Below, one piece after another: positions 2,675 through 24,897 of a DNA stretch of 64,000 nt. Within the stretch, counting starts at the first letter, position 1. Each line of letters begins with the position of its first letter. The stretch spans positions 1 to 64,000 of the forward strand of contig JBHLOI010000012.1 of assembly GCA_048940645.1 (NCBI GenBank). Reading direction: 5' to 3'. The notes below the pieces were generated by a model. That model did not search any database. It was not told the DNA's origin and saw only the letters and a program-made list of their open reading frames with translations. The position numbers and the translations under genes were made by a program. This stretch comes from Promethearchaeota archaeon (lineage in GTDB: Archaea; Asgardarchaeota; Lokiarchaeia; Sigyniarchaeales; SOKP01).

Positions 2675-5600
2675 TTAATTTTCTTCTACATTTGTAGGAA
2701 CCTCTGATATATTTAAAAGGCGCTTCGCCTCTTGTTCTAAATCAACACTAAACACATCAGTTATTCCAGATTGTTGCATGGATACTCCATATATCCTGTC
2801 CGCATTTACAATATTCTCCTCACGATGACTAATTACGAGGAATTGTGCCTCTCGTGAAAGCTCTCTCAGCAGCATGGAAACTCTGTGCACATTTGGACCA
2901 TCCAATTGAGCATCTACCTCATCGAGAATATAAAAGGGAGCAGGATAGAACTCTTGTATGGAAAAGATAAACGAGAGAGCCACGAGTGTCTTTTCTCCAC
3001 CGCTAAGAATTTCCAAGCTCGAGATTTTTTTTCCGCGTGGTCGAGCTTCAATGCTTACACCTCCTTCAAATGGTTTATCTGGTCTATCTAATATCATTTT
3101 AGCTGAGCCTCCGGGACTTAGTTTCTGAAAAATTCTACTAAATTCTCTATTAATTTCATGATACGCTTTCATAAAAGTCCTAGTTTTTTCTAATTCAATT
3201 TTTTCAATAGCATCTAAGATTGCTTTTCTTTCTCTTTGAATTGTTTGTCTACGCATATCTATCTCATCGAATCTTTCTTTAACTGTATCAAATTGTTCAA
3301 TTGCTTTTAAATTAACAGGTTCAAGAGCCTTCTTCTTACTATTAGCTTCATTAATATCTGTTTGTAGACCTGTTTCCGATAAATCATCGGTTACTTGTGG
3401 TAAGGAACCATAATCCTTTGATCTATGGTACAATGTTTCAATTTGATCTGTAGTCATGATTTTTTGGGATTCATAATTGTTTAATTTGGAATTTTCCATT
3501 GAAAGATCAGATTTTAAGTTATTTACAATTTTTTGATATGATTTTTGCTTTTTCCAAGATTCGTCCTTTTGATTAATGAAATCATCAATTTCTTCTTGCT
3601 TTAAACGTTTCTTTTCATTTTCACTATTTAAATTTTCTTTTACTTTTTTAATATCTTCTACCAATGATTTGATTTGTTTTTCGGTGTTTTTTATCTCTTC
3701 ATTTAGTGAAAATATTTTTTGTTCGCGCTCTTTATTTTTATTCAATTCGTTAAGTTTTTTCTGAGATTTTTGTAGATCCTTATTAAATTTATTCAATTTA
3801 CTTTGAGTCTTTTTTTGGGCTTCAAGCTCCTTGTTTTTCTCTTCGCGAATATGATCAATTTCTTTTTGAACTTCATCTACTTTTTTTTGAATATTTTCAA
3901 CTTGGGAATTGAATTCTTCAATATCTTTTTTACATACATCAATATTTTTATTGGCTTCGATGTTTTCTTTTGTTAATTCTTCGATGGAATTTATCATCAT
4001 CATAATATTTTCTAGAGCTCTAAGTTGATCCATTTTTTCCTCTAATTTCTTGTTATATTCTTCAGTTTCCTTTCTTATTTTCTCAATATTTACCCAATAA
4101 TTCTCTTTTTCAGTTATTAATTTTTCAATATTTTTATCCAGATTAGATTGCTCTAAGTTTAGATTTTTAATATTTTCTTCATTTATATTTATTACTTCTT
4201 TCTTTTCCTCTATGGATTTGTTTAATTCTTTAACATTGTCTTCAATTTCTAGAACATTTTCAAATAGATTCTGAATCCCCCGAAGATCTTGTAATTTTGT
4301 TTGTAATTCTTCTAATTCTTTCTGTTTTTCGTCAAGTTGTAATTGAATTGCTGAAGAATTATCCCAATATTCATTTTTAAGGTTTTTTAATTTTTCTATC
4401 TCAGTTTTATAATCTTCTTTTTGTTTTTCATCAATCAAACTAGTTCTTTTTCGGATTTCGTCATCAGATTGTAAATTTAATTTATTTATTTCAGCTATTC
4501 TTTTATTAATTTCCTCAAGTCTTTGATTAAAGAGTATTAAATTATCTGAATCATTTTTCTCTTGTGTACTAAATTCAGTTAATTTCATATCAACTTTATT
4601 TAAATCTTCATTTTGTGAACTGATATTTTCGGAAATTTCCTCTAATTGTCTATATAATTCTTGACTCTTAGACATTGTTAATTTCCTTAAGGAGAGATAT
4701 ACGTTTTCTAGAATTTCCATTAGATCTTGCACAAAACTATCAAAAGTAGATGTAGATTGTTGAATTTCAACATCTGCAGATTCTTTAACTCTATTAATTA
4801 ACTGATCTAATGTTAAATCAACATTTTCGGTAAATAAAGTTAAAGTTTGTAAAATTGAGCTGAGCATTTGGGACATTTCTGATTTTTCTCCTTCATCATC
4901 GGTGACCCCCTCAACAGTTTTCATTATATCTACAACATCCAATACAAATTTCTTAAAATCTTCAGCAGAAGTTTCAATAGCTTCCGCATTTGACTGCTGA
5001 ATGTTACTTTTTATAGATTCGACAGAGATATTAATATTTTGAGTCAGCATATTTAAAATTTGGAGAATTCCTGTAATATCTTCAGTATTTCTCTCATATT
5101 CTTTTTCTGAGTTTTCAATTTTTGATAATAAATTTTCTTTTTCAGACGTTAAATCATCTAAACGTTTAGTGATATTTTGCTTTCGAGTTTCAAGATTTTT
5201 TCTCTCGCTTTCAATTTGAGAAAGACTTTTATTTAAACTACTAACTTTTAAACTTAAATCTCGTTTCTCACGCTCTAGATTTGTTAATTCTCTTTTAGAT
5301 AGTTTTAATTTAGTATTTATATTATCTATTTTTGCTCTATTATCAAATATTTCAGATTGGATTGAATCTTGCTTCAATATTAACAGTTCTAATTCTTGTT
5401 CATTCTTTCTGTATGTAGAATCTTCAAGTTTTGCTTTTTCCTTAAGATTCTCCAAATTTTTGATAATAATTTCTCTATTATCCATCAATTCTTTTAAAAT
5501 TGATTCAGTTTCTTTTCCCTTGCTTAATTCTTTAATTTTATTTTCAATGGATAATTTTCTACTGTTTAATTTTTGGATTCTATCTTTATTGATTTTAATT

Positions 5601-7123
5601 TCAGTATTTATCGAAGATAAGCTAGATTGTAATTCTGCGGATTTTGAATTCAGTTGATATTTTTGTTCTTGTAATTCCTTAATTTTCGTTTCTAATTCTT
5701 TTTGTTTTTGATTTTCTTTTGTGATGTTTCCTTTCAATTCGTTAATCTTTTTCCTTAAATCTCCTTCTTCTTTTTTTACTACATTTATTGCTTCATCGAT
5801 ACTTTCTGCTTCTCCCTTTAATTTATTTAGATCAGTTTCCAACTTTTGTTTCTTTTCTTCATTCTTTATGATGTTTTCTTTAAAAATTTTAATTTGGGCT
5901 TTATTAGAAGAAATATTTTGCTTTAAGTTTGAGATATCGGTTTTGTGAGACGATTTTACATCTTCATTTTCGCTTATTTTTAAATCGAGTTCTGTTTGAC
6001 TTTGTTGCTTGAGTTCAATATTTTTTTTTGCATCTTCAATTTGATTTTCTAATTCAAGGATTTGATTATTTTCAGTTTCAATTAACGAGTCAAACGTCAG
6101 ACCCTCTTCAAGCTCCATTTGTAAATTTTCTAAACTTTTTATTTCTTGAGATAACTTCTCAATTGATTTATTAGCTAAATCCAATGTAGTTTGATTAGAG
6201 GATAACTGAGTTTTCAATTGGGTTATATTTTCATTTATTAACTCTCGATCTTTTTCTTTTTCTGTAATTGTCTTCTGTATATTATCCATTACTAAAGATT
6301 CTTGCTTTAAAACCTCTTCTTGTCGTGTTACTTTTTCTTGTAATTCCTCAATAAGTTTATTTGATTCTTCAATTTTTTTTTCCAATTCCTCTTCTTGATC
6401 TCTTAATTTTGAAATTTTTAACGCAATTAATTGGGCATTATAAAATTTGATTTTTTCATCCAATTCTTTCCAAGCCAAAGCATCGCTTTTCTCTTTTTCT
6501 ACTTTTTTAAGTTGTGAAGATACTTCTTTGAAAATTGCTTCGAATTGACCTAAATCTCTCTCTGCTTTTTCTAATTCTTTTAAAGTAGAATCCTTCATCT
6601 CATCATATTTCTGTAATCCAATTAGTTCCTCAATAAAAATTCTACGTCCTTCGGTATTCATGTGAGTCAATTCTACTATTTTACCTTGTAATACAAACTG
6701 ATTAGATCCATCTGGGTCTACATTTGCAGTCGCCAGAGCATTAAGAATTTGCTGTCGTGTGACTTTTTTCCCGTTCATTTTGTATCCTCCTCCACCACCC
6801 CGTTTTATAGTTCGAGTTATTTGAAACTCATCCCCTCCTCCAGGAAAGATCTTCTCTGAATTATCAAAAAACATAGTTACTGCTGCTCTTTGTGATGGAT
6901 TTTTACCTCTAGAACCTGCAAAAATAAGATCCTCGAGACTTTTTGCTCTCATTGTTTTTTTACTCAATCTTCCTAAAGCAAAACATAGAGCATCAATAAT
7001 ATTTGATTTTCCTGCACCGTTAGGTCCTACTATACAAGTAAATCCACTTGAAAGTCGAATAGTCACTGTTCTATCTCCAAAGGATTTAAATCCAGTCATA
7101 GAAATTTTTTTGATATAAGTCAA
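2675..7123 (-). CDS. smc: SMC-family chromosome segregation ATPase (1482 aa, atypical apex with no recognisable hinge)
   Basis: GFKSF N-terminus, Walker A GPNGAGKSN, Q-loop FVLQG, long coiled coils, PVNLKAIE, signature LSGGEK, Walker B/D-loop ILDEVDAQLD, ISH. Confidence 0.93.
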   Translation of the reverse strand: MTYIKKISMTGFKSFGDRTVTIRLSSGFTCIVGPNGAGKSNIIDALCFALGRLSKKTMRAKSLEDLIFAGSRGKNPSQRAAVTMFFDNSEKIFPGGGDEFQITRTIKRGGGGGYKMNGKKVTRQQILNALATANVDPDGSNQFVLQGKIVELTHMNTEGRRIFIEELIGLQKYDEMKDSTLKELEKAERDLGQFEAIFKEVSSQLKKVEKEKSDALAWKELDEKIKFYNAQLIALKISKLRDQEEELEKKIEESNKLIEELQEKVTRQEEVLKQESLVMDNIQKTITEKEKDRELINENITQLKTQLSSNQTTLDLANKSIEKLSQEIKSLENLQMELEEGLTFDSLIETENNQILELENQIEDAKKNIELKQQSQTELDLKISENEDVKSSHKTDISNLKQNISSNKAQIKIFKENIIKNEEKKQKLETDLNKLKGEAESIDEAINVVKKEEGDLRKKINELKGNITKENQKQKELETKIKELQEQKYQLNSKSAELQSSLSSINTEIKINKDRIQKLNSRKLSIENKIKELSKGKETESILKELMDNREIIIKNLENLKEKAKLEDSTYRKNEQELELLILKQDSIQSEIFDNRAKIDNINTKLKLSKRELTNLEREKRDLSLKVSSLNKSLSQIESERKNLETRKQNITKRLDDLTSEKENLLSKIENSEKEYERNTEDITGILQILNMLTQNINISVESIKSNIQQSNAEAIETSAEDFKKFVLDVVDIMKTVEGVTDDEGEKSEMSQMLSSILQTLTLFTENVDLTLDQLINRVKESADVEIQQSTSTFDSFVQDLMEILENVYLSLRKLTMSKSQELYRQLEEISENISSQNEDLNKVDMKLTEFSTQEKNDSDNLILFNQRLEEINKRIAEINKLNLQSDDEIRKRTSLIDEKQKEDYKTEIEKLKNLKNEYWDNSSAIQLQLDEKQKELEELQTKLQDLRGIQNLFENVLEIEDNVKELNKSIEEKKEVININEENIKNLNLEQSNLDKNIEKLITEKENYWVNIEKIRKETEEYNKKLEEKMDQLRALENIMMMINSIEELTKENIEANKNIDVCKKDIEEFNSQVENIQKKVDEVQKEIDHIREEKNKELEAQKKTQSKLNKFNKDLQKSQKKLNELNKNKEREQKIFSLNEEIKNTEKQIKSLVEDIKKVKENLNSENEKKRLKQEEIDDFINQKDESWKKQKSYQKIVNNLKSDLSMENSKLNNYESQKIMTTDQIETLYHRSKDYGSLPQVTDDLSETGLQTDINEANSKKKALEPVNLKAIEQFDTVKERFDEIDMRRQTIQRERKAILDAIEKIELEKTRTFMKAYHEINREFSRIFQKLSPGGSAKMILDRPDKPFEGGVSIEARPRGKKISSLEILSGGEKTLVALSFIFSIQEFYPAPFYILDEVDAQLDGPNVHRVSMLLRELSREAQFLVISHREENIVNADRIYGVSMQQSGITDVFSVDLEQEAKRLLNISEVPTNVEEN

Positions 7124-7292: not shown

Positions 7293-8486
7293 TCAAAATT
7301 TGTTAAATATTGCATCTACAATAGCTTTAAGTTGTTTTGGATTTATTGCCATAAAATAGAAGTTATAATTTAATATATCATTTTGATCAGAATTTAATAT
7401 GGTTTGATTACTTTTTTTTGAGAAACTCAAAACTCCGATACTATGTAATGCTTTAATTAATTCATTAAATTCACCTATTCTTTTATTATATTCTAATGAT
7501 TCACAGGATATATAGTATAGTTCCTTTAATTCATCTATTGTTATATAATAATTAGGTCTTTTTAAAAAGAAATTCGCTAAGTTATCAAGAAAGATTAGAG
7601 TTAATATATCTTCTTCAGAAATATAAGTTAACATGGCAAATTCATCTGATAGGTGAATTGAATCAAATTGATTTTGAAGTATTTCAATAATCTCCAGATT
7701 ATTTATAATATTTTGACGAGCTAATATTGGATATAATTCTCTTAATATCTCAACTCCTTTTCCCGGTACAGGAACATAATGTTCAAAAATCAAATCAGTT
7801 ATAAATTCAATTAATTCTTTATCAATTCCATTGATGAAGGTTAAAGCAACTCGTTGTTCAATAATATCAAGAAGTTCTTGGTAATTGTAATAGTTTAATT
7901 TTTTTTTAATATCAAATTCATTAATTAAGTCTAGAGTTTTAGGTTTCAATACTTTATTTACAGTTGAAATTGAGTTTATTTTTGATTCTTTTCCATAGTG
8001 TAAGAATTTTTTATAATATTCTGGTTTTAAATGCTCTCCATTGTTGAAAATAAAGATTAAATTTTTTCTAGTTTTGTTACAGATTAGTTTGAAAATATTC
8101 CATAATTCAGATAAATTACAATTGAGGAATTGAAGATAATCAACTTCAATATTGATAAAACTGCTAATATCAGTTATAATGGAGAAAATAATCTCATGAA
8201 TGCTTTTTTCTTTACAATCTATTGGAATTTTTATGAAATCTATAAAATTTTCTTCCTTTTTAAGTAGATCTTGTATGACTTTATTAATAATTACTTTTTT
8301 ACCAATTCCTTGGATACCTTGGTATAATACATTTAAACTAAACTCATCTGATACTGAATCTTTCAGAATTGAATACAAGTTGACTTCTTCTTTCTTCCTA
8401 TGTAAAATTTCAGGAGGAACATAATTAGGATCAAAAATAGCTTTTGGTCCAATACAAAAGTTCATAGATTTTGATTTTCCAATCAT
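7293..8486 (-). CDS. Orc1/Cdc6-like AAA+ protein with degenerate ATPase motifs
   Basis: FDPNYVPPEILHRKKE matches the Cdc6/Orc1 N-terminus; Walker A-like GIQGIGKK; Walker B position reads FIFNNGE; YNYQELLDIIEQR; C-terminal winged-helix-like region. Confidence 0.75.
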   Translation of the reverse strand: MIGKSKSMNFCIGPKAIFDPNYVPPEILHRKKEEVNLYSILKDSVSDEFSLNVLYQGIQGIGKKVIINKVIQDLLKKEENFIDFIKIPIDCKEKSIHEIIFSIITDISSFINIEVDYLQFLNCNLSELWNIFKLICNKTRKNLIFIFNNGEHLKPEYYKKFLHYGKESKINSISTVNKVLKPKTLDLINEFDIKKKLNYYNYQELLDIIEQRVALTFINGIDKELIEFITDLIFEHYVPVPGKGVEILRELYPILARQNIINNLEIIEILQNQFDSIHLSDEFAMLTYISEEDILTLIFLDNLANFFLKRPNYYITIDELKELYYISCESLEYNKRIGEFNELIKALHSIGVLSFSKKSNQTILNSDQNDILNYNFYFMAINPKQLKAIVDAIFNKF

Positions 8487-11487: not shown

Positions 11488-12648
11488 TTGTCTACTATTG
11501 TTGCCTTATCATATTTTCACCGAAAAATTGGTCCATTGGTATTCTATTCTTATCCAAGTGTTATGCTAGATGACCAGTTGTCAATTAGAATTGCTAATAT
11601 TATGGATCAGACTGTTAGTGAAGGTTTTTTTACACACTCATTCGAAAATAAAAATTCTATGAACTTTTATTTTGAAATACATTCAGATTGGAATCGTGGA
11701 AATAAAGAAATGCTAATGATTTCAATTATTCTTGATCGTCATACGTCACCAGAGATAGAGCAAAATATTTCAACTCTTTGTACTGAATTTTCTGAAAAAC
11801 TTCAATCAAACGAGGAAATTTTTACTGCTTTTTACGTAAATGATGTAAATAATTTTGATGAGACTGACAAAGAGTTAATCTTAAAAAATAATTCTTTAAT
11901 AAAAACCTGGGTTAAAGAGCTATACTGGGCTACACTCGAAGAAACTAGAGAAAAAAGTGAAGAAGAAAAAATTGCTACATTATTGAATAAAGAACATATA
12001 TTTTCAACATTAAAAAAGCTATCAAAAGGACCTATAACTTTAGAGGGATTGAATGAGTGGTTTAATGAGATTTTCCCCGATTTAAATTTCAATGAAATAA
12101 TTGACCTTTTAGCAGAAAAACAATTTATTTTCATAAATCAAATCGGGATTGTAGAAAAATACATTTTATTAGTAAAGGAAGTTAATGCTGAAAGAATACC
12201 TCCCGATAGTGTTATCGAGTATATTGATGAGACTCCAGAACAAATCGAAAGAGAACTAATTGACTTGTTAATCCCAAAAGTGCAAGAATATTTTAGTATT
12301 TATGAAAATAAAAGCAGAAAAGAATTAGAAGAAGATACTCTAACATTATTCCAGATAATATCTGATTCACGAAAATATAACGTTCTTTCAGAATTAAGGA
12401 ATGGTTTAATATCAAAAGACAAACTTCCGAAGCTGGTTTCAAAGAGAACACTTGATCACTTAAATACCTCATTAGATTTTCTGAAAAAGTATGATGTTAT
12501 CGAAGAATTGAAGTATAGAAATGAAACTTATATTGTACTAAAAACAAATATTCAAATTACAACAACATTTCCAGAATATTTGAGGAAACTTTTACCAAAA
12601 GAAAGTAAACCTGTTGTAGCGAAAAAATACATTCCAAAAAATCGATAA
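11488..12648 (+). CDS. Longin/uDENN-domain protein with C-terminal winged-helix-like regions (NPRL2-like eukaryotic signature protein)
   Basis: N-terminus VALSYFHRKIGPLVFYSYP matches the F-H-x3-G-P-x5-P opening of longin/uDENN proteins such as NPRL2; 386 aa; TTG start with GGAG upstream. Confidence 0.65.
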   Translation: MSTIVALSYFHRKIGPLVFYSYPSVMLDDQLSIRIANIMDQTVSEGFFTHSFENKNSMNFYFEIHSDWNRGNKEMLMISIILDRHTSPEIEQNISTLCTEFSEKLQSNEEIFTAFYVNDVNNFDETDKELILKNNSLIKTWVKELYWATLEETREKSEEEKIATLLNKEHIFSTLKKLSKGPITLEGLNEWFNEIFPDLNFNEIIDLLAEKQFIFINQIGIVEKYILLVKEVNAERIPPDSVIEYIDETPEQIERELIDLLIPKVQEYFSIYENKSRKELEEDTLTLFQIISDSRKYNVLSELRNGLISKDKLPKLVSKRTLDHLNTSLDFLKKYDVIEELKYRNETYIVLKTNIQITTTFPEYLRKLLPKESKPVVAKKYIPKNR

Positions 12649-14492: not shown

Positions 14493-17400
14493 TTAATCTT
14501 CTTTTTTTTCTCCATACAACAAATCTGGATAAATCGGTTCAAATTTCTCATTAAATAATTTATGATTCATCCAAATTTTATCTTTATCGTTCCAAATAAG
14601 ATTCTTTAGAGGATTATAAGAATCTAGGAACTCTAAATTACCATAAACGGACTTTAACAAATGTTTTCCATCAATTAAATCAGTTAATATTAGATAGTGC
14701 TTAATCTCAAAATATTGGAATATGAGATCGAAAACCTTAAAAAATTCGTCCATTTCGCATTTTGGGAACCAAATATCAATTAAAAAACCATTTTCAAATG
14801 GCTTTACGTCTTCAAACCCATAAATATATAACTCTCCTTCAATCTCATATATATGACACATGTTAAAAAAGCTAAATATTTTGATAATTTTCTCATTAAA
14901 CGCCTTCTTCACGTTGGGTAAAATAATTGAAACTCTATCTTGAAAATCCAAATTTTTTAATGATAAATAAGGAAAAATTAATTTCTTTTTAAGTAGATCA
15001 GTTATATAATTAATTGTGGTATATTTTTTCGTGCCTAAATATGATTTAATATCAATTGAATATCTATTATAAATCTGTGACAAGCTATTATATTCTTCAG
15101 ATTCAGGTCCATAAACATCCGAATCATTTATGGAATCGAAATCGAACTCTCTTATGCTTTGAATTTTTGGATCATAAGAGGGGTTAAATAGAACATTCTG
15201 TACATAATATTTAAATCTCATCGAAGAATAGTCCCAACCCGCTTTTCTCAGATTTCGATCAAATTGAACTATTTCATAGAACTTTTTTTTATAGAAAAGA
15301 CAATATTCACTAACTAATTTTTTCGATTTAATAAGCCAATTTAGATATGATGTATTAGGTGTTCTATATGGATAGATGAAAGAACTATAAATCATTTGAT
15401 TAATATCAATGCAAGCAGGATATTTAATCTCTTGAAAAGAATTTGCAAATAAAATTTTGAAGTTGATATCATTATATTGAAAAGGTCTAAAATACAAATT
15501 ATATTGCGAAACACCAAATTTTCGAAATAACGGTAGAAAATTTACGCAATTTACATATTTTTGGAAAAAGTTTGCATTTTTAATATCAATTATCTTCAAA
15601 GTATTTAAGATTATATGACTTAAATTCTCTCGAAATTCATTTAATTCAATAATTTTATTCGAATCAAAATCGATATCATAATTATAAATTCTTTTTTGTA
15701 TGGTATTTATTAAATAATTAATATCTTGGGTTGTTGACCAAAAAAAATCTTGAAAATCATTATCCAATTGAAATTTAGGGCATCTCATTTTTTTTCCCAG
15801 AATATTCTGAGAAAAGAGTAAAAGTTGTTCAAATAAATCTTTTGAATAAAAGAAATTTTTGTTTTCAAAATCATAAAACTCAAAATATTGCAAGTTTGAG
15901 GCTCTTTCTACGCCTCTCCAAAAATATCTTTTTAAAGATAAAATCGATTTTCTTAGATAATTATATAGGATTGAGATAAATAATTCCTTCTCCTCAATAT
16001 TCGTCATATAGATATTCATACTAATGAATTTTTTCTGAGTATTCAAATCTAACCTTTCGTGTATAAATGCTCTTGGAAAGTACATTTTTAACTGATTAAG
16101 TAATTTTCGTATCTCAGGAGTATTTTCGACAAGTAATGTTGGAAAGTATTTAGCAAAAGTACTTGTAAAAATTGTATTAATCAAAAGAGGTTTAATCAGA
16201 GGTGGCTCATGATCTAAAAACTTTTGTATAGTTAACTCAATCTTCTCATTTGTTATATCATCCTTACTCATTAATTTAAAAGATTTTTGAATTCTTTCTT
16301 TTTTTATTTTAATTATTTCTTCAATTAAATGAGAACTTTGTTGTTTGAGAATCTTCTCTATTATACTTATATCAAATATTTTTAGGTTATAACAAGATTT
16401 TAAAACATTAAAAAACAACTGAAATTTTTCTATTTCATTCTTATAATCCTCTTTAGAACGGAAATATAATGGAATAACATCATGGTATATTATTTTTTTT
16501 AGATCTGGGTTTTGAATAAGTATATTATCTTCAATTATACGAGAAATATTAGTTAATGTAAAAAGATCTCTATTAGAAAGTTCAATATTATTTTCTAAAA
16601 TATTTTCTATTAATCCTAAATAGTGTAGTAATTCATTTAATATATGGTATATATATAAAAATCCTTTTGTATGATTTTTTTCTAAAAAATATAAAAATTT
16701 CTTTCTAGTTTCATGGGAATTTGAAATTTTATATAAGATTACTTTAAAATCTTTAACAAAATTTAATTGTTTTCTTAAATCGTTTTCAAAATCATCTTTA
16801 ATTGCATTTAAAGTTTCTGATCTTTTATCGAATGTCAAACCAGTTGTTGAGACATAATGTATTCGTTGAAGAATTTTAAAATCAAAAACAGAAAACGGAA
16901 TTGAATATGATTTATCAGGGAATTCTATTTTATGCTCAATTTCAAGCTTTTTTTTATATTCTATACTATTAGGATTAACAATTTTTTTTGTGTTAGAAAT
17001 ATCATTAAAGTAATTTAAATTTATAAATGATGTCTTAGTTGAAATTAAATTTATACTTTTTTGAATTATATAACCATTTGATTCTAATATATTGAAATAA
17101 GTTATTAGATCACTTAAATACACTTTCGGAATGATAAATAATAAAGAAACATCTGCTGCAAAACTATTTTCTGTTACTTTTGGTGAGCTAAGAAAGGGTA
17201 ATTCTTCAACTATTTTTTTAATTTTGTATCTTTCTAAAAGGGGATTAAATCTTATCAGACACCCTACAAGGCATAAACCCATTAAATTATAAGAGATATC
17301 ATATGAAGGAGCTATGGTTGCAGAACATTTATTAATCCACTGCATATTTTCAATGAACTTTCTTAAACTTAAATCAGTATCAAATCTTTCGATTTCTTTG

Positions 17401-18122
17401 AATTTTTTAAACAAAGTATAATAATTTGATAAATTTTGATAGGATTTTGTCTCATAAAATAATTTGATAAACATTCTAAGAGTTTCGATGACATTTTCAT
17501 TAAATAAAGATCTAGAAGTGCTATACGTGTATCTTTCGTAAATTATGTCATAAAAATGGTCAATATTAGAATTCTCAAATAATAATGTCTTTTCTCTTAT
17601 TTCCTTAAAAAAAAATTGAACTGAACTCTCTAGTGGATCGTTTGCTTCTATTTTAAAGAATTTTTGCAATTTATCAAATTGTTTATTTAAAAACTCCCTG
17701 TTTACTAAAGAATCTCTTAAATAGCTTTTCCACTCTTTATAGGATCCTAATTTTTTAAGATCATTTTCAACAATTTGATTAATACAAATTTTTACGAGGT
17801 CACTTACCCTTTCTGGAAGAAAACTATAATATGCTTCTCTAAGTAAAATAAAAGGTAAAAACTCTTTATAGTTTTTATTAATTTCAATTGAAACTTTATC
17901 ATTTTGATAAATTTTATTAACCCCAAAATCGAGAATATTTATTTTATTCTTTTTTTCAGAGACTTTTGATATTAATTTAATTACATAATTTTTATGTAGG
18001 GGTTGCAGCTTAAGATAATCAATTAGCTCTGATAATAATGTGAAAAAAACATTTTGGACCTGATTTAATGCTTTTCCTTTAGATATTTCCTCTAAAATCT
18101 CATTATCTATTTGTACAGGCAT
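14493..18122 (-). CDS. Giant (1209 aa) hypothetical protein, possibly a multi-repeat Lrp/AsnC-like regulator
   Basis: Internally repeated segments (PSYDISYNLMGLCLVGCLIRF; NFLPLFRKFGVSQYNLYF; LIFPYLSLKNLDFQDRVSIIL) resemble the wHTH-to-RAM linker of Lrp/AsnC proteins; N-terminal ILLREAYY resembles a degenerate HExxH. Confidence 0.55.
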   Translation of the reverse strand: MPVQIDNEILEEISKGKALNQVQNVFFTLLSELIDYLKLQPLHKNYVIKLISKVSEKKNKINILDFGVNKIYQNDKVSIEINKNYKEFLPFILLREAYYSFLPERVSDLVKICINQIVENDLKKLGSYKEWKSYLRDSLVNREFLNKQFDKLQKFFKIEANDPLESSVQFFFKEIREKTLLFENSNIDHFYDIIYERYTYSTSRSLFNENVIETLRMFIKLFYETKSYQNLSNYYTLFKKFKEIERFDTDLSLRKFIENMQWINKCSATIAPSYDISYNLMGLCLVGCLIRFNPLLERYKIKKIVEELPFLSSPKVTENSFAADVSLLFIIPKVYLSDLITYFNILESNGYIIQKSINLISTKTSFINLNYFNDISNTKKIVNPNSIEYKKKLEIEHKIEFPDKSYSIPFSVFDFKILQRIHYVSTTGLTFDKRSETLNAIKDDFENDLRKQLNFVKDFKVILYKISNSHETRKKFLYFLEKNHTKGFLYIYHILNELLHYLGLIENILENNIELSNRDLFTLTNISRIIEDNILIQNPDLKKIIYHDVIPLYFRSKEDYKNEIEKFQLFFNVLKSCYNLKIFDISIIEKILKQQSSHLIEEIIKIKKERIQKSFKLMSKDDITNEKIELTIQKFLDHEPPLIKPLLINTIFTSTFAKYFPTLLVENTPEIRKLLNQLKMYFPRAFIHERLDLNTQKKFISMNIYMTNIEEKELFISILYNYLRKSILSLKRYFWRGVERASNLQYFEFYDFENKNFFYSKDLFEQLLLFSQNILGKKMRCPKFQLDNDFQDFFWSTTQDINYLINTIQKRIYNYDIDFDSNKIIELNEFRENLSHIILNTLKIIDIKNANFFQKYVNCVNFLPLFRKFGVSQYNLYFRPFQYNDINFKILFANSFQEIKYPACIDINQMIYSSFIYPYRTPNTSYLNWLIKSKKLVSEYCLFYKKKFYEIVQFDRNLRKAGWDYSSMRFKYYVQNVLFNPSYDPKIQSIREFDFDSINDSDVYGPESEEYNSLSQIYNRYSIDIKSYLGTKKYTTINYITDLLKKKLIFPYLSLKNLDFQDRVSIILPNVKKAFNEKIIKIFSFFNMCHIYEIEGELYIYGFEDVKPFENGFLIDIWFPKCEMDEFFKVFDLIFQYFEIKHYLILTDLIDGKHLLKSVYGNLEFLDSYNPLKNLIWNDKDKIWMNHKLFNEKFEPIYPDLLYGEKKED

Positions 18123-18339
18123 AAAAACAGATATAATTTCTCTAAATTATTAGACATTTTTCTATTTCTTAATTAATATTATTCTCTTTTTATAATTTTA
18201 GAATCGTTTACTTTAAAAATATATAATTTTTTAGGTTAATTTCTTTTTAAACTAATTTTTTGATGTCCATTTTTTTCGTTTATTTTAAAAATATATATTA
18301 AAATATTTAGTTGCTTATCGCAAATAACAGGAAAGAGGA

Positions 18340-18378
18340 ATGGCAAAGATGCCATACGGTGGAGAAAATGGAGGTTAA
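18340..18378 (+). CDS. Putative 12-aa micro-peptide MAKMPYGGENGG
   Basis: ATG GCA AAG ATG CCA TAC GGT GGA GAA AAT GGA GGT TAA, preceded by purine-rich AGGAAAGAGGA and an upstream TATA-like tract; GC-rich relative to the surrounding spacer; followed by an inverted repeat and poly-T. Confidence 0.5.
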   Translation: MAKMPYGGENGG

Positions 18379-18388
18379 ATAGTTAGAT

Positions 18389-18472
18389 TTAGAATCCTCT
18401 ACAATAAATCAAGTTTTATCAAATTTTAACACCGACTCTAAGGATTCTAATGTGTTTTTTCTCTTTTTTTTT
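18389..18472 (+). terminator. Inverted repeat plus oligo-T terminator downstream of the micro-ORF
   Basis: TTAGAATCCT (18389-18398) and AGGATTCTAA (18441-18450) form a perfect 10-bp inverted repeat, followed by TTTTTTCTCTTTTTTTTT. Confidence 0.55.
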
Positions 18473-18560
18473 TAAGATATGAATATTATTCATTGAGTTT
18501 ATAAATTTTTGGTTAGACCAGATAGTAATTAAATTCGTTATTATAATCAGGTTTTTATAA

Positions 18561-19733
18561 GTGATATCTAAGTCTAATTCGTTTGTATATTTTTACACGT
18601 ATTTTAATGCAGAAATGATACTCACATATACAAATAGTTATTTACCTATTTATTTTTCAAATATTATTAAAATAGATATAGGTCAGCTTTCATTTATTCT
18701 CTTTTTTTCATATCTAGCATTATTTTCACGGCCTCTTATCTCGATTTATTTTGATAGAAAGGATTCAAAAAAAAGGTATTTAATAATTGCTAGCGGGTTA
18801 GGGATTTTAGTAAGTTTTTTATTATTAATTTTTAATTTGCATTTAACTGTATTATTTGGTATTTTCTACGCACTTCTATTAACCTCTATTTCAGTAAATA
18901 TTGTAGGAGTAAATAAGATTATGATTTCCTGTTCAGAAGATAACAACAGCAAAAGTAAAAATGCTTTATACATTCAAGTTGGGTCAATCTTTGGTAGTTT
19001 ATTTCCGATAATTCTTTTTTTAATAAGTGTAGGCTCAGCATCTAATTGGAACACCTTTTTTATTATTGGTATACTCTTTACCACACCTATATCAATCTTT
19101 ACATTTCTCCTCAAAGAAAAAAAAAAGGATTCTTATCGTGTAAAAGATGATGTAAGAAAATCGTTTGATAAAAAAAATATAATTTTAGTGTGTTTATTTC
19201 TATTCTTTGCTTTCTCAGACAGGTTATTTTCGTATTCAATTAAACCCTGGATTTCAATTCAGACGAGCACTGCATTTTTCTCAATATTATGGTTTATTCT
19301 AATTTTGATTTATACACTAGGAAATTTAATCGGTGGTTGGGCTTTTAAGAAGTTAAATTGTAAAAAGACACTTCTTATTACTACTTTATTAATAGGTTTC
19401 TCGCTCTTTTTTGTTGCTTTTATCGTCAATTTTAATTTCTCATTATCTTTAATTATTTATGGACTGTATTTTTTCATTTCTGGTCTGTTTTTGATTAAAT
19501 TAATTCCTTATAAAATGGAACTTGCTCAAAATAGAGTGTTCTATTATCAATTAATGACAATGTCTAGCGTTTTAGCAAGCATTATTTTTACTCCAATAGG
19601 GACATTCTTTTATCAATATATTGAAACAGATATTATAATCATGATTTCAGGAATCTTGATAATATTATCTACCATTCCTTTTTATTTTGTTAAAATAAGT
19701 AAAGAAGAAGGTTATAATTTAATAAAAAAATAA
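18561..19733 (+). CDS. MFS transporter
   Basis: ~12 hydrophobic segments; motif A-like ISIYFDRKDSKKR and GNLIGGWAFKKLNCKK. Confidence 0.8.
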   Translation: MISKSNSFVYFYTYFNAEMILTYTNSYLPIYFSNIIKIDIGQLSFILFFSYLALFSRPLISIYFDRKDSKKRYLIIASGLGILVSFLLLIFNLHLTVLFGIFYALLLTSISVNIVGVNKIMISCSEDNNSKSKNALYIQVGSIFGSLFPIILFLISVGSASNWNTFFIIGILFTTPISIFTFLLKEKKKDSYRVKDDVRKSFDKKNIILVCLFLFFAFSDRLFSYSIKPWISIQTSTAFFSILWFILILIYTLGNLIGGWAFKKLNCKKTLLITTLLIGFSLFFVAFIVNFNFSLSLIIYGLYFFISGLFLIKLIPYKMELAQNRVFYYQLMTMSSVLASIIFTPIGTFFYQYIETDIIIMISGILIILSTIPFYFVKISKEEGYNLIKK

Positions 19734-23822: not shown

Positions 23823-24557
23823 TTGTCATATTTTGAATCAAGATTAAGAATAAATTTCGATAATTTAGAAGAAGTTAGACAAACACTAAACTTTTGTGAA
23901 CAATTGGGGATAAAAAATTTAATTCTTGAACCAATAAAGAATTCAAATAACTATAAGGCTGAATTACTAAATAAAATTAAAAAAATTACAAATCTAAATA
24001 TATATTATCGCTTTAATTTAAGGCCAAGCAACTTGAATGTTTTTAAGAAGACTATTAAAAAATTCAATTCTTTTCCTCATATTTTAGGGGTAGAAACACC
24101 AGATAAAGAGATTCAAATTCAAGCAGCAAAAGATTCTAGAATAGATATCTTATCATTTTCAAATGAAAACATTATGAAGACAATCTCGATTGGAGTTATT
24201 TCATTAATTAAACAAAACAATTCGTTCATTGAATTTTCATTAGCTCCAATAATGATGAAATCTATAGGAATTCAGTCAAAGAATTTCAGAAATTTGTATC
24301 GCTTTACTAAATTAGTATTAGATTTAAAACCAAATTATATTATTAGTGGTAATTTTAGCGAGTTATATCAATTTAGAAATCCTAGAAGTCTCTTAAGTAT
24401 TTGCCACACATTATTAGGAATGTCTTTAGATGAAGCAAAAAAGGGATTTAGGGATAATGTCCAATTATTATTAGAGCGTGCTAACCATCGTGTTAATAAA
24501 AATATATACCAAGAAGGCGTCAAATTCATTAAAGGAGGAGATAATGGCTATGTATAA
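23823..24557 (+). CDS. rnp3: Ribonuclease P protein subunit p30 (Rpp30)
   Basis: AAKDSRIDILS, IEFSLAP, IISG..YQFRNP PHP-like pattern; immediately upstream of Pop5. Confidence 0.85.
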   Translation: MSYFESRLRINFDNLEEVRQTLNFCEQLGIKNLILEPIKNSNNYKAELLNKIKKITNLNIYYRFNLRPSNLNVFKKTIKKFNSFPHILGVETPDKEIQIQAAKDSRIDILSFSNENIMKTISIGVISLIKQNNSFIEFSLAPIMMKSIGIQSKNFRNLYRFTKLVLDLKPNYIISGNFSELYQFRNPRSLLSICHTLLGMSLDEAKKGFRDNVQLLLERANHRVNKNIYQEGVKFIKGGDNGYV

Positions 24558-24897
24558 GGAGCGGCAAAGATATATTCTATTCCGTATTTTTAGCGAAAAT
24601 AAGAGTAAATTTGATCAAAATAGAATATTGAAAGCAATTTGGCAATCAATTTGGAGATACTTTGGTCTGAAGGAAGCTAATAAGACGGGATTATGGTTAG
24701 TAGAACTTGATCTGGAGAATGATTATGGAATAATAAGATGCTCTCATCAAACTAAGGAATTGGTAATTTCTGCTTTAACTCTAATAACAGAGATAAGTAG
24801 TGAGAAAATAATATTCTCTCCCGTTAAAACTTCTGGAACTATTAGATCGTTGGAAAAAGTAAAAGATATGATATTTAACAGAAATCAGAATAGTTAA
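24544..24897 (+). CDS. rnp2: Ribonuclease P protein subunit Pop5/Rpp14
   Basis: ERQRYILF, FG, GIIRC, KTSGTIRSL; start moved to the in-frame ATG at 24544 (or 24550) behind AGGAGG. Confidence 0.9.
   Translation: MAMYKERQRYILFRIFSENKSKFDQNRILKAIWQSIWRYFGLKEANKTGLWLVELDLENDYGIIRCSHQTKELVISALTLITEISSEKIIFSPVKTSGTIRSLEKVKDMIFNRNQNS

Follow-up and report, generated by a model that had tools for sequence, protein, structure and literature searches.

What is the function of a gene that encodes only a handful of amino acids and lies head to head with a gene for a protein of 1209 residues? The question is raised by a 64,000-nucleotide stretch of DNA from a Promethearchaeota archaeon (GenBank assembly GCA_048940645.1, contig JBHLOI010000012.1, positions 1 to 64,000; here called the window), in which a micro-gene at 18349-18378 on the plus strand is divergent from a gene at 14493-18122 on the minus strand, and is followed on its own strand by a gene for a transporter of the major facilitator superfamily (MFS). 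An earlier note on this DNA had drawn attention to a mini open reading frame (ORF), the GC-richer island around it, an element resembling a Shine-Dalgarno (SD) sequence, a TATA-like tract, a 10-bp inverted repeat with poly-T, the giant ORF and the MFS gene, all of which were found where it had placed them. It had suggested a peptide signal with its receptor-regulator, a RiPP-like peptide (made by ribosomes and then modified post-translationally), a Gly-Gly modifier or sulfur carrier, or an upstream ORF (uORF) attenuating the MFS gene. The micro-gene is real and conserved, comes with a promoter, ribosome-binding site and terminator of its own, and stays linked to the large gene across the family. 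The first of the suggested functions fits best, and we regard it as evenly poised between right and wrong.

The micro-gene and its predicted transcript

The micro-gene lies in an island (18300-18399) with a GC content of 35%, compared with 14-22% in the spacer on either side. The open frame, 18340-18378, holds two ATG codons, at 18340 and 18349. The SD-like core (18335-18338, plus strand) is 10 nt from the second of these and 1 nt from the first; SD spacing across the genome peaks at 7-11 nt, and the 16S tail of the genome carries the anti-SD sequence. The first ATG is missing at the homologous loci L003 and L064, and at L005 an in-frame stop comes after it. Because the SD spacing fits 18349, and relatives lose or interrupt the first ATG, the start is placed at 18349, and the peptide has nine residues rather than the 12 originally proposed: it is the longer version without its first three residues, with Met-Pro at the start, Gly-Glu in the centre and Gly-Gly at the end. 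The gene is identical in a second genome (G019). The ORF is also unchanged in one low-depth contig of another study, and the probable source run agrees throughout; the closest sequence runs are sediment metagenomes.

Neighbourhoods were parsed at 125 homologous loci, the host family being sampled by 134 genomes. On a purpose-built score, the micro-ORF ranks top in the whole 3.8-Mb host genome (GC content 29.8%, 89.6% complete). The score was designed after the first examples had been seen and is partly circular, and independent signs were therefore also relied on. In a strict test, a micro-gene within 600 nt and on the divergent strand was found at 61 of 120 loci, compared with 3 of 1338 other long genes of the genome, and shuffled sequences gave no micro-genes at the strict threshold. 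The expectation that short ORFs would be found near homologues is thereby borne out, except that the motif proposed for them was too narrow, the cores being hypervariable. Synonymous-biased conservation, also anticipated, was seen as well: the GC content at the third codon position of the peptide genes is 0.17, and their Pro and Gly codons vary synonymously. An SD sequence is present at 8-11 nt in 42 of 71 short peptide genes. At the level of sequence, the conservation of frame together with the synonymous variation shows protein coding. Standard gene callers miss these micro-genes, and the present one is unannotated.

The peptide-gene promoter (18270-18292, plus strand) consists of a T-tract, a conserved word containing CG and a TATA box at 18284-18291. 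The clade has 20 copies, and the promoter of the peptide gene is the best match in the whole genome. The TATA box precedes the ATG by 28-29 nt where a copy has no SD sequence, which would give leaderless mRNA, and by 57-79 nt where it has one. A scan of the genome with the promoter matrix gave no clear distant regulon. Beyond the gene, a perfect 10-bp inverted repeat (18389-18398 and 18441-18450) is followed by a T-tract at 18455-18473. The hairpin is not significant in the host genome alone (z -1.0); the stem is conserved in relatives, with a loop that varies from 5 nt (L007, L070, L072 and L100) to about 42 nt. The stem and U-tract (18389-18473, plus strand) are probably a terminator or a 3'-stabilizer, and the transcript would extend from about 18313 to 18473, or about 160 nt.

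A second promoter copy on the same strand, 95% identical and 72 nt upstream (18204-18225), is probably the relic of a tandem duplication of the cassette. Intact tandem cassettes occur at L005, L061, L062 and L100, and in genome G065 the second promoter copy keeps a decayed leader and T-tract with no ORF. In a different clade (L008-L021, L083 and L094), most members have an inverted repeat that abuts the TATA box, 76-81 nt 5' of the peptide ATG; it differs between two sub-clades and is not individually significant, and is a candidate operator. A riboswitch or other non-coding RNA (ncRNA) was also considered for the element and dropped, there being no Rfam match at 18300-18480 and a z of about -1.5 for folding of the whole element as RNA.

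The peptide family and its partner protein

A rule-based scan of the 125 loci gave 115 candidate peptide genes at 89 loci, about four of which were judged false; approximately 85 of the 125 loci have an adjacent micro-gene in the equivalent position. The candidates comprise 71 short ORFs (mostly 8-11 residues, range 8-14), 41 ORFs that have a hydrophobic leader, and 3 of other kinds. The leaderless peptides, rich in Gly, Pro and Glu/Asp, mostly begin with Met-Pro. In the leadered precursors, of 34-43 residues, a basic N-region leads into a hydrophobic stretch, then a cleavage region of small residues and then a Gly-rich core of 8-11 residues ending in Pro. Some 40 leaders were called signal-peptide-like by eye from this pattern of residues, which points to export. 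Most cores in the family end in Pro, and the Gly-Gly end is found in a few members of the window's clade.

The style of the peptide follows the clades of the protein tree, and the leader state switches at least five times while the style of the core stays. In some clades the peptide gene is downstream of the large gene. Tandem arrays of variant peptide genes are common (L005, L026, L027, L061, L093 and L168), and at L115 and L123 one precursor contains three cores. The cores differ between close relatives and this, with the tandem variants and the three-core precursors, is as expected for specificity codes. At L022, the peptide gene, about 260 nt upstream of the large gene, seems to start with ATT or to have no start codon.

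The 1209-residue protein is encoded by a single-copy gene in the host genome. It occurs in 118 of the 134 genomes of one family of Lokiarchaeia, which is that of the host, and in none of the 26 other Lokiarchaeia searched. A profile search of 1.8 billion representatives retrieved 204 proteins, and the best 150 of these, which were inspected, are unnamed members of about 1200 residues or shorter pieces. Deep-branching homologues at L159-L161, with no peptide gene detected, are co-directional with a gene for a GNAT-ThiF fusion.

Searches of Pfam, NCBIfam and PDB sequences gave no match to the protein, and Foldseek gave no E below 0.001. Its structure was considered from an AlphaFold2 model (predicted local distance difference test 87.9, predicted template modelling score 0.89). 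The model has a head at about residues 13-205; four units of a winged helix-turn-helix (wHTH) and a RAM domain at about 206-372, 410-735, 760-955 and 965-1152, the second of which holds a helical insert of about 180 residues (434-618); and a conserved C-terminal tail. The model thus bears out both the degenerate HExxH-like motif and the four or so Lrp/AsnC-like repeats noticed at the outset.

The head matches M1 aminopeptidases with Z 8.1-8.3 and root-mean-square deviation (rmsd) 4.2-4.5 over about 163 aligned residues (VIA), and there are many independent gluzincin matches over residues 13-205 at Z 6-8.3, which are middling but consistent. In the model it therefore appears to have the fold of a zincin catalytic domain. 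The position of HExxH is occupied by Arg-Glu-x-x-Tyr, so that the Glu at the catalytic position is kept, and among 118 members there is no His at either zinc-ligand position, the replacements being Arg and Tyr/Lys/Asn/Leu. Gly67, Arg95, Glu96 and Asn115 are conserved around the old metal site, and Phe101 is conserved as well. With both His ligands replaced, the head probably neither binds zinc nor carries out proteolysis, and we infer that it is a binding cleft without catalysis.

Unit 1 superimposes on the Lrp-type protein ST1022 (2e7w; Z 9.8, rmsd 5.3, 144 residues aligned), and units 1 and 2 together on NirDL (4czc; Z 13.2, rmsd 5.1, 298 aligned). Units 3 and 4 were assigned by their pattern of secondary structure and by Atlas matches. 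These are archaeal tandem-Lrp proteins, many with hits of the HTH_AsnC type, and include a Bathyarchaeota cluster of 717 residues, for which the alignment covers residues 23-772 at a template modelling score of 0.49; the Atlas feature search was blank for the head and below 0.9 for the C-terminal part. As modelled, the units have the wHTH, linker strand and RAM fold of Lrp/AsnC (feast/famine regulatory) proteins, in a chain that differs from the subunit of about 150 residues caught by AsnC-type Pfam models. The most conserved parts are RAM3, RAM4 and the tail, and HTH1 and the start of HTH2 are also conserved. There was no TPR or RRNPP structure among the fold matches listed, which does not exclude one; most of the chain is assigned to zincin or Lrp folds, but the helical insert is not. 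A co-fold of the last 30 residues of the L128 precursor with residues 1-778 of its neighbour gave 0.09, and is counted neither for nor against. On the model, the protein is a putative peptide-sensing regulator.

Signal, product or cofactor

The arrangement is best understood as a peptide-signal cassette, because relatives put the same kind of core behind a signal-peptide-like leader, and because the partner joins a pseudo-peptidase to Lrp units. The peptide would be exported and then sensed by the neighbouring regulator, in the manner of Rgg/SHP or RopB/LCP (leaderless communication peptide) systems and with unrelated parts; we give this proposal an even chance. Leadered forms would leave the cell through Sec and signal peptidase, and leaderless forms through the cassette MFS. 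Re-entry would be through peptide ATP-binding cassette (ABC) importers, and the peptide would then bind in the zinc-less peptidase cleft of the 1209-residue protein, altering the action of its four Lrp units on the promoters that drive the peptide gene and the cargo, namely the MFS and, in some relatives, tailoring enzymes. The outcome would be strain-specific autoinduction. The window peptide itself probably loses its first Met and is otherwise left as it is. The host genome has nine matches to peptide-ABC binding proteins (SBP_bac_5). Separately, a 2167-residue open frame with two SBP_bac_5 peptide-binding domains was seen at G000:C28:33520-36552.

The MFS gene (18561-19733, plus strand; PF07690, E 5.5e-13) belongs to a cassette-specific family and has no close paralogue in the host genome. 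A conserved TATA-like word near 18499 suggests that it has its own promoter. Homologues are found at 50 loci in either orientation. The transporter is a candidate peptide exporter, regulated target, or both. It is present at 39 of 56 leaderless loci compared with 2 of 24 leadered loci, which would suit a dedicated exporter.

Several results weigh against a peptide signal. The association of the MFS with leaderless peptides comes down to only four independent pairs, and is not significant given the tree. About a quarter of the homologues, mainly on deep branches, have no detectable peptide gene nearby. The similarity of peptides does not follow that of receptors (overall rho -0.05), and the partial correlation for the head domain is only 0.12. 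An operator search found no palindrome in the window's clade, and a significant inverted repeat in only 6 of 78 promoters, none of them in the window. Finally, the best fold match of the whole protein, NirDL, is an Lrp-fold enzyme.

The explanation that survives next best is that the micro-peptide is the precursor of an exported bioactive product of RiPP type, such as an antagonist or a metal ligand, which some lineages would tailor and the MFS would pump out. The large protein would then regulate the cluster in which it is situated without having to sense the exported peptide, and the window would hold a reduced version without an enzyme. About 16 peptide loci do add an enzyme of tailoring type, usually between the peptide and MFS genes: a B12-binding radical-SAM protein at L061, L062, L072, L074, L104 and L108; YcaO at L115 and L123, only after Cys-containing three-core precursors; and a ThiF-family adenylyltransferase, a class I methyltransferase or both at L080, L086, L091, L092, L131, L133 and L139. 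For the cassette ThiF, the matches to MccB and PaaA have E of about 1e-17, below eukaryotic E1, and a leaderless peptide with ThiF and MFS is the layout of microcin C (PMC4010828). Against this, the enzymes are found at only about 16 of some 90 peptide loci, and in none of 20 loci with the MFS alone did reading further reveal any of them. The window cassette has no tailoring enzyme, and in the host genome, as far as it is complete, YcaO is absent, as are close matches to the cassette radical-SAM and methyltransferase. The constant partner, moreover, is a regulator and not an enzyme. A RiPP-like peptide, as suggested in the earlier note, is therefore still live for the family, with no enzyme at this locus to match, and we consider it unlikely but worth serious attention. 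It is compatible with a peptide signal, and both could possibly hold if some lineages tailor the signal.

Three individual layouts may be recorded here. The 46-residue precursors at L115:5454-5591 and L123:2128-2265 carry three Cys/Gly cores behind a short leader and are followed by YcaO and MFS genes, a cyanobactin-like layout in an Asgard archaeon. At L189:386-3458, genes for the peptide, ThiF, methyltransferase and MFS lie downstream of the large gene, in a microcin-C-like layout without the terminal Asn. At L172:4200-5834, a frameshift splits the ThiF gene that belongs to the L062 cassette.

It is rather improbable that the peptide acts only within its own cell, as an intracellular or membrane-tethered co-regulator reporting translation, proteolysis or secretion status to the regulator there. 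A leaderless form would meet a cytoplasmic protein without export, 17 of the 56 leaderless loci show no MFS nearby, and that the leadered forms are cleaved is only a prediction; but the leaders would take the core out of the cytoplasm, and a private cofactor would not readily account for hypervariable tandem cores.

The match to NirDL also raises the idea of a maturase, an Lrp-fold enzyme akin to NirDL or the AhbAB siroheme decarboxylases with a zincin head that recruits the peptide. The particular conservation of RAM3, RAM4 and the tail, and the strict one-to-one linkage with the peptide gene, would agree with this. However, any pair of fused Lrp units would naturally have NirDL as its best match, single units resemble regulators at least as closely as they do AhbAB (Z 9.8 compared with 8.0), and the conservation extends to HTH1 and the start of HTH2. 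Precursors of Sec type would exit the cytoplasm, the divergent gene order suits a regulator, and relatives add separate tailoring enzymes. We consider a maturase quite improbable.

A uORF attenuator, a Gly-Gly modifier or sulfur carrier, or an ncRNA with a chance ORF is very improbable and largely refuted by gene order in relatives: the window ORF does precede a terminator and the MFS gene, end in Gly-Gly and overlap a 6-bp hairpin, but the MFS lies on the opposite strand at roughly half of the loci and is missing from many, the usual terminal residue is Pro, no peptide of the family has room for a β-grasp fold, and the blank Rfam search, synonymous variation and conserved frame speak against an RNA.

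Elsewhere in the window, a 745-residue multi-zinc-finger protein with DUF4379/Jiv90 matches (371-2608) is convergent with a 1482-residue SMC protein (2675-7123), after which comes a Cdc6/Orc1-like ORF, recognized by eye (7293-8486). A 386-residue protein without a Pfam match (11488-12648) has an N-terminus that to the eye looks longin-like, and two overlapping ORFs at 23823-24897 resemble, by eye, the RNase P subunits Rpp30 and Pop5.

Comparison with known systems

Archaeal cell-cell signalling is barely defined at the molecular level; the density signal of Haloferax volcanii, for example, is still chemically unidentified (PMC13464002, PMC12240190). Archaeal RiPP clusters, Asgard included, have been mined in bulk (PMC12144867). 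In the literature, of which our coverage is incomplete, no archaeal peptide-receptor pair and no paper on this peptide-regulator pair was found, and the conserved system is apparently undescribed in archaea. It may be that Asgard archaea evolved their own peptide signalling, independently of bacterial RRNPP, with strain-specific peptides of 8-11 residues, exported by Sec or MFS and sometimes tailored, and a receptor formed by one chain, its dead peptidase binding the peptide and its four Lrp units controlling transcription; our confidence in this falls just short of even. From the lineage nearest to eukaryotes, the cassette supplies dozens of named peptide-protein pairs that could be tested in vitro with no need to culture the hosts, and it offers a new receptor architecture of pseudo-peptidase and tandem Lrp, together with candidate Asgard peptide-tailoring enzymes.

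The beta-grasp ubiquitin-like modifiers and sulfur carriers SAMP, ThiS and MoaD differ from the nine-residue peptide in fold, and Gly-Gly ends are few even within its clade; uORF and leader-peptide attenuators differ in that the MFS is neither fixed in position nor always co-directional. The likeness to microcin C (mccABC(DE)) is closer, with a tiny leaderless peptide gene and an MFS, and ThiF and methyltransferase in some relatives (PMC4010828), and as in RiPP and microcin C clusters a putative exporter is present. However, the peptides lack the C-terminal Asn that is the substrate of MccB, most ending in Pro and the window peptide in Gly; ThiF is absent from the window cassette and most others, and the constant partner is a giant dedicated regulator.

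That regulator resembles Lrp/AsnC proteins (ST1022, 2e7w; AsnC, 2cg4; LrpA, 1i1g) and NirDL (4czc) in its wHTH-linker-RAM unit, present four times. It differs in that a single chain holds all four units together with a zincin-like domain at the N-terminus, the 180-residue helical insert and the conserved tail, and in a sequence identity of 7-14% with no Pfam match. Its residues 13-205 share with gluzincins (M1 enzymes such as tricorn factor F3, 1z1w; thermolysin) the fold and the Glu at the catalytic position, whereas both His ligands are replaced in all 118 members.

Rgg/SHP loci of streptococci adjoin ThiF or radical-SAM (RaS-RiPP) genes (PMC13361665). With these, and with Rap/Phr, PlcR/PapR and AimR/AimP, the Asgard loci share a regulator with a peptide gene next to it, precursors that carry a leader and a C-terminal core, radical-SAM, ThiF or transporter cargo in some cases, and tandem signal variants. 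No sequence similarity was found, however, the receptor fold differs, and a separate signal and RiPP precursor are not distinguishable here. As in RRNPP(A) systems, a peptide gene adjoins the regulator and encodes either what appears from its residue pattern to be a signal-peptide precursor or a leaderless 8-10-mer; the folds assigned to the partner in the model differ, and membership is not claimed. The receptors of LCPs are HTH and TPR proteins of the RRNPP family, of about 280-300 residues. In RopB/SIP and RopB/LCP systems of Bacillota, as at the Asgard loci, a strain-variable leaderless gene of 8-10 codons is divergent from a cytoplasmic regulator, with cargo downstream (PMC10518010). LCPs are hydrophobic, whereas the Asgard peptides are rich in Gly and Pro and often acidic, and their partner is a 1209-residue fusion of a pseudo-peptidase with four Lrp units, in an archaeal host.

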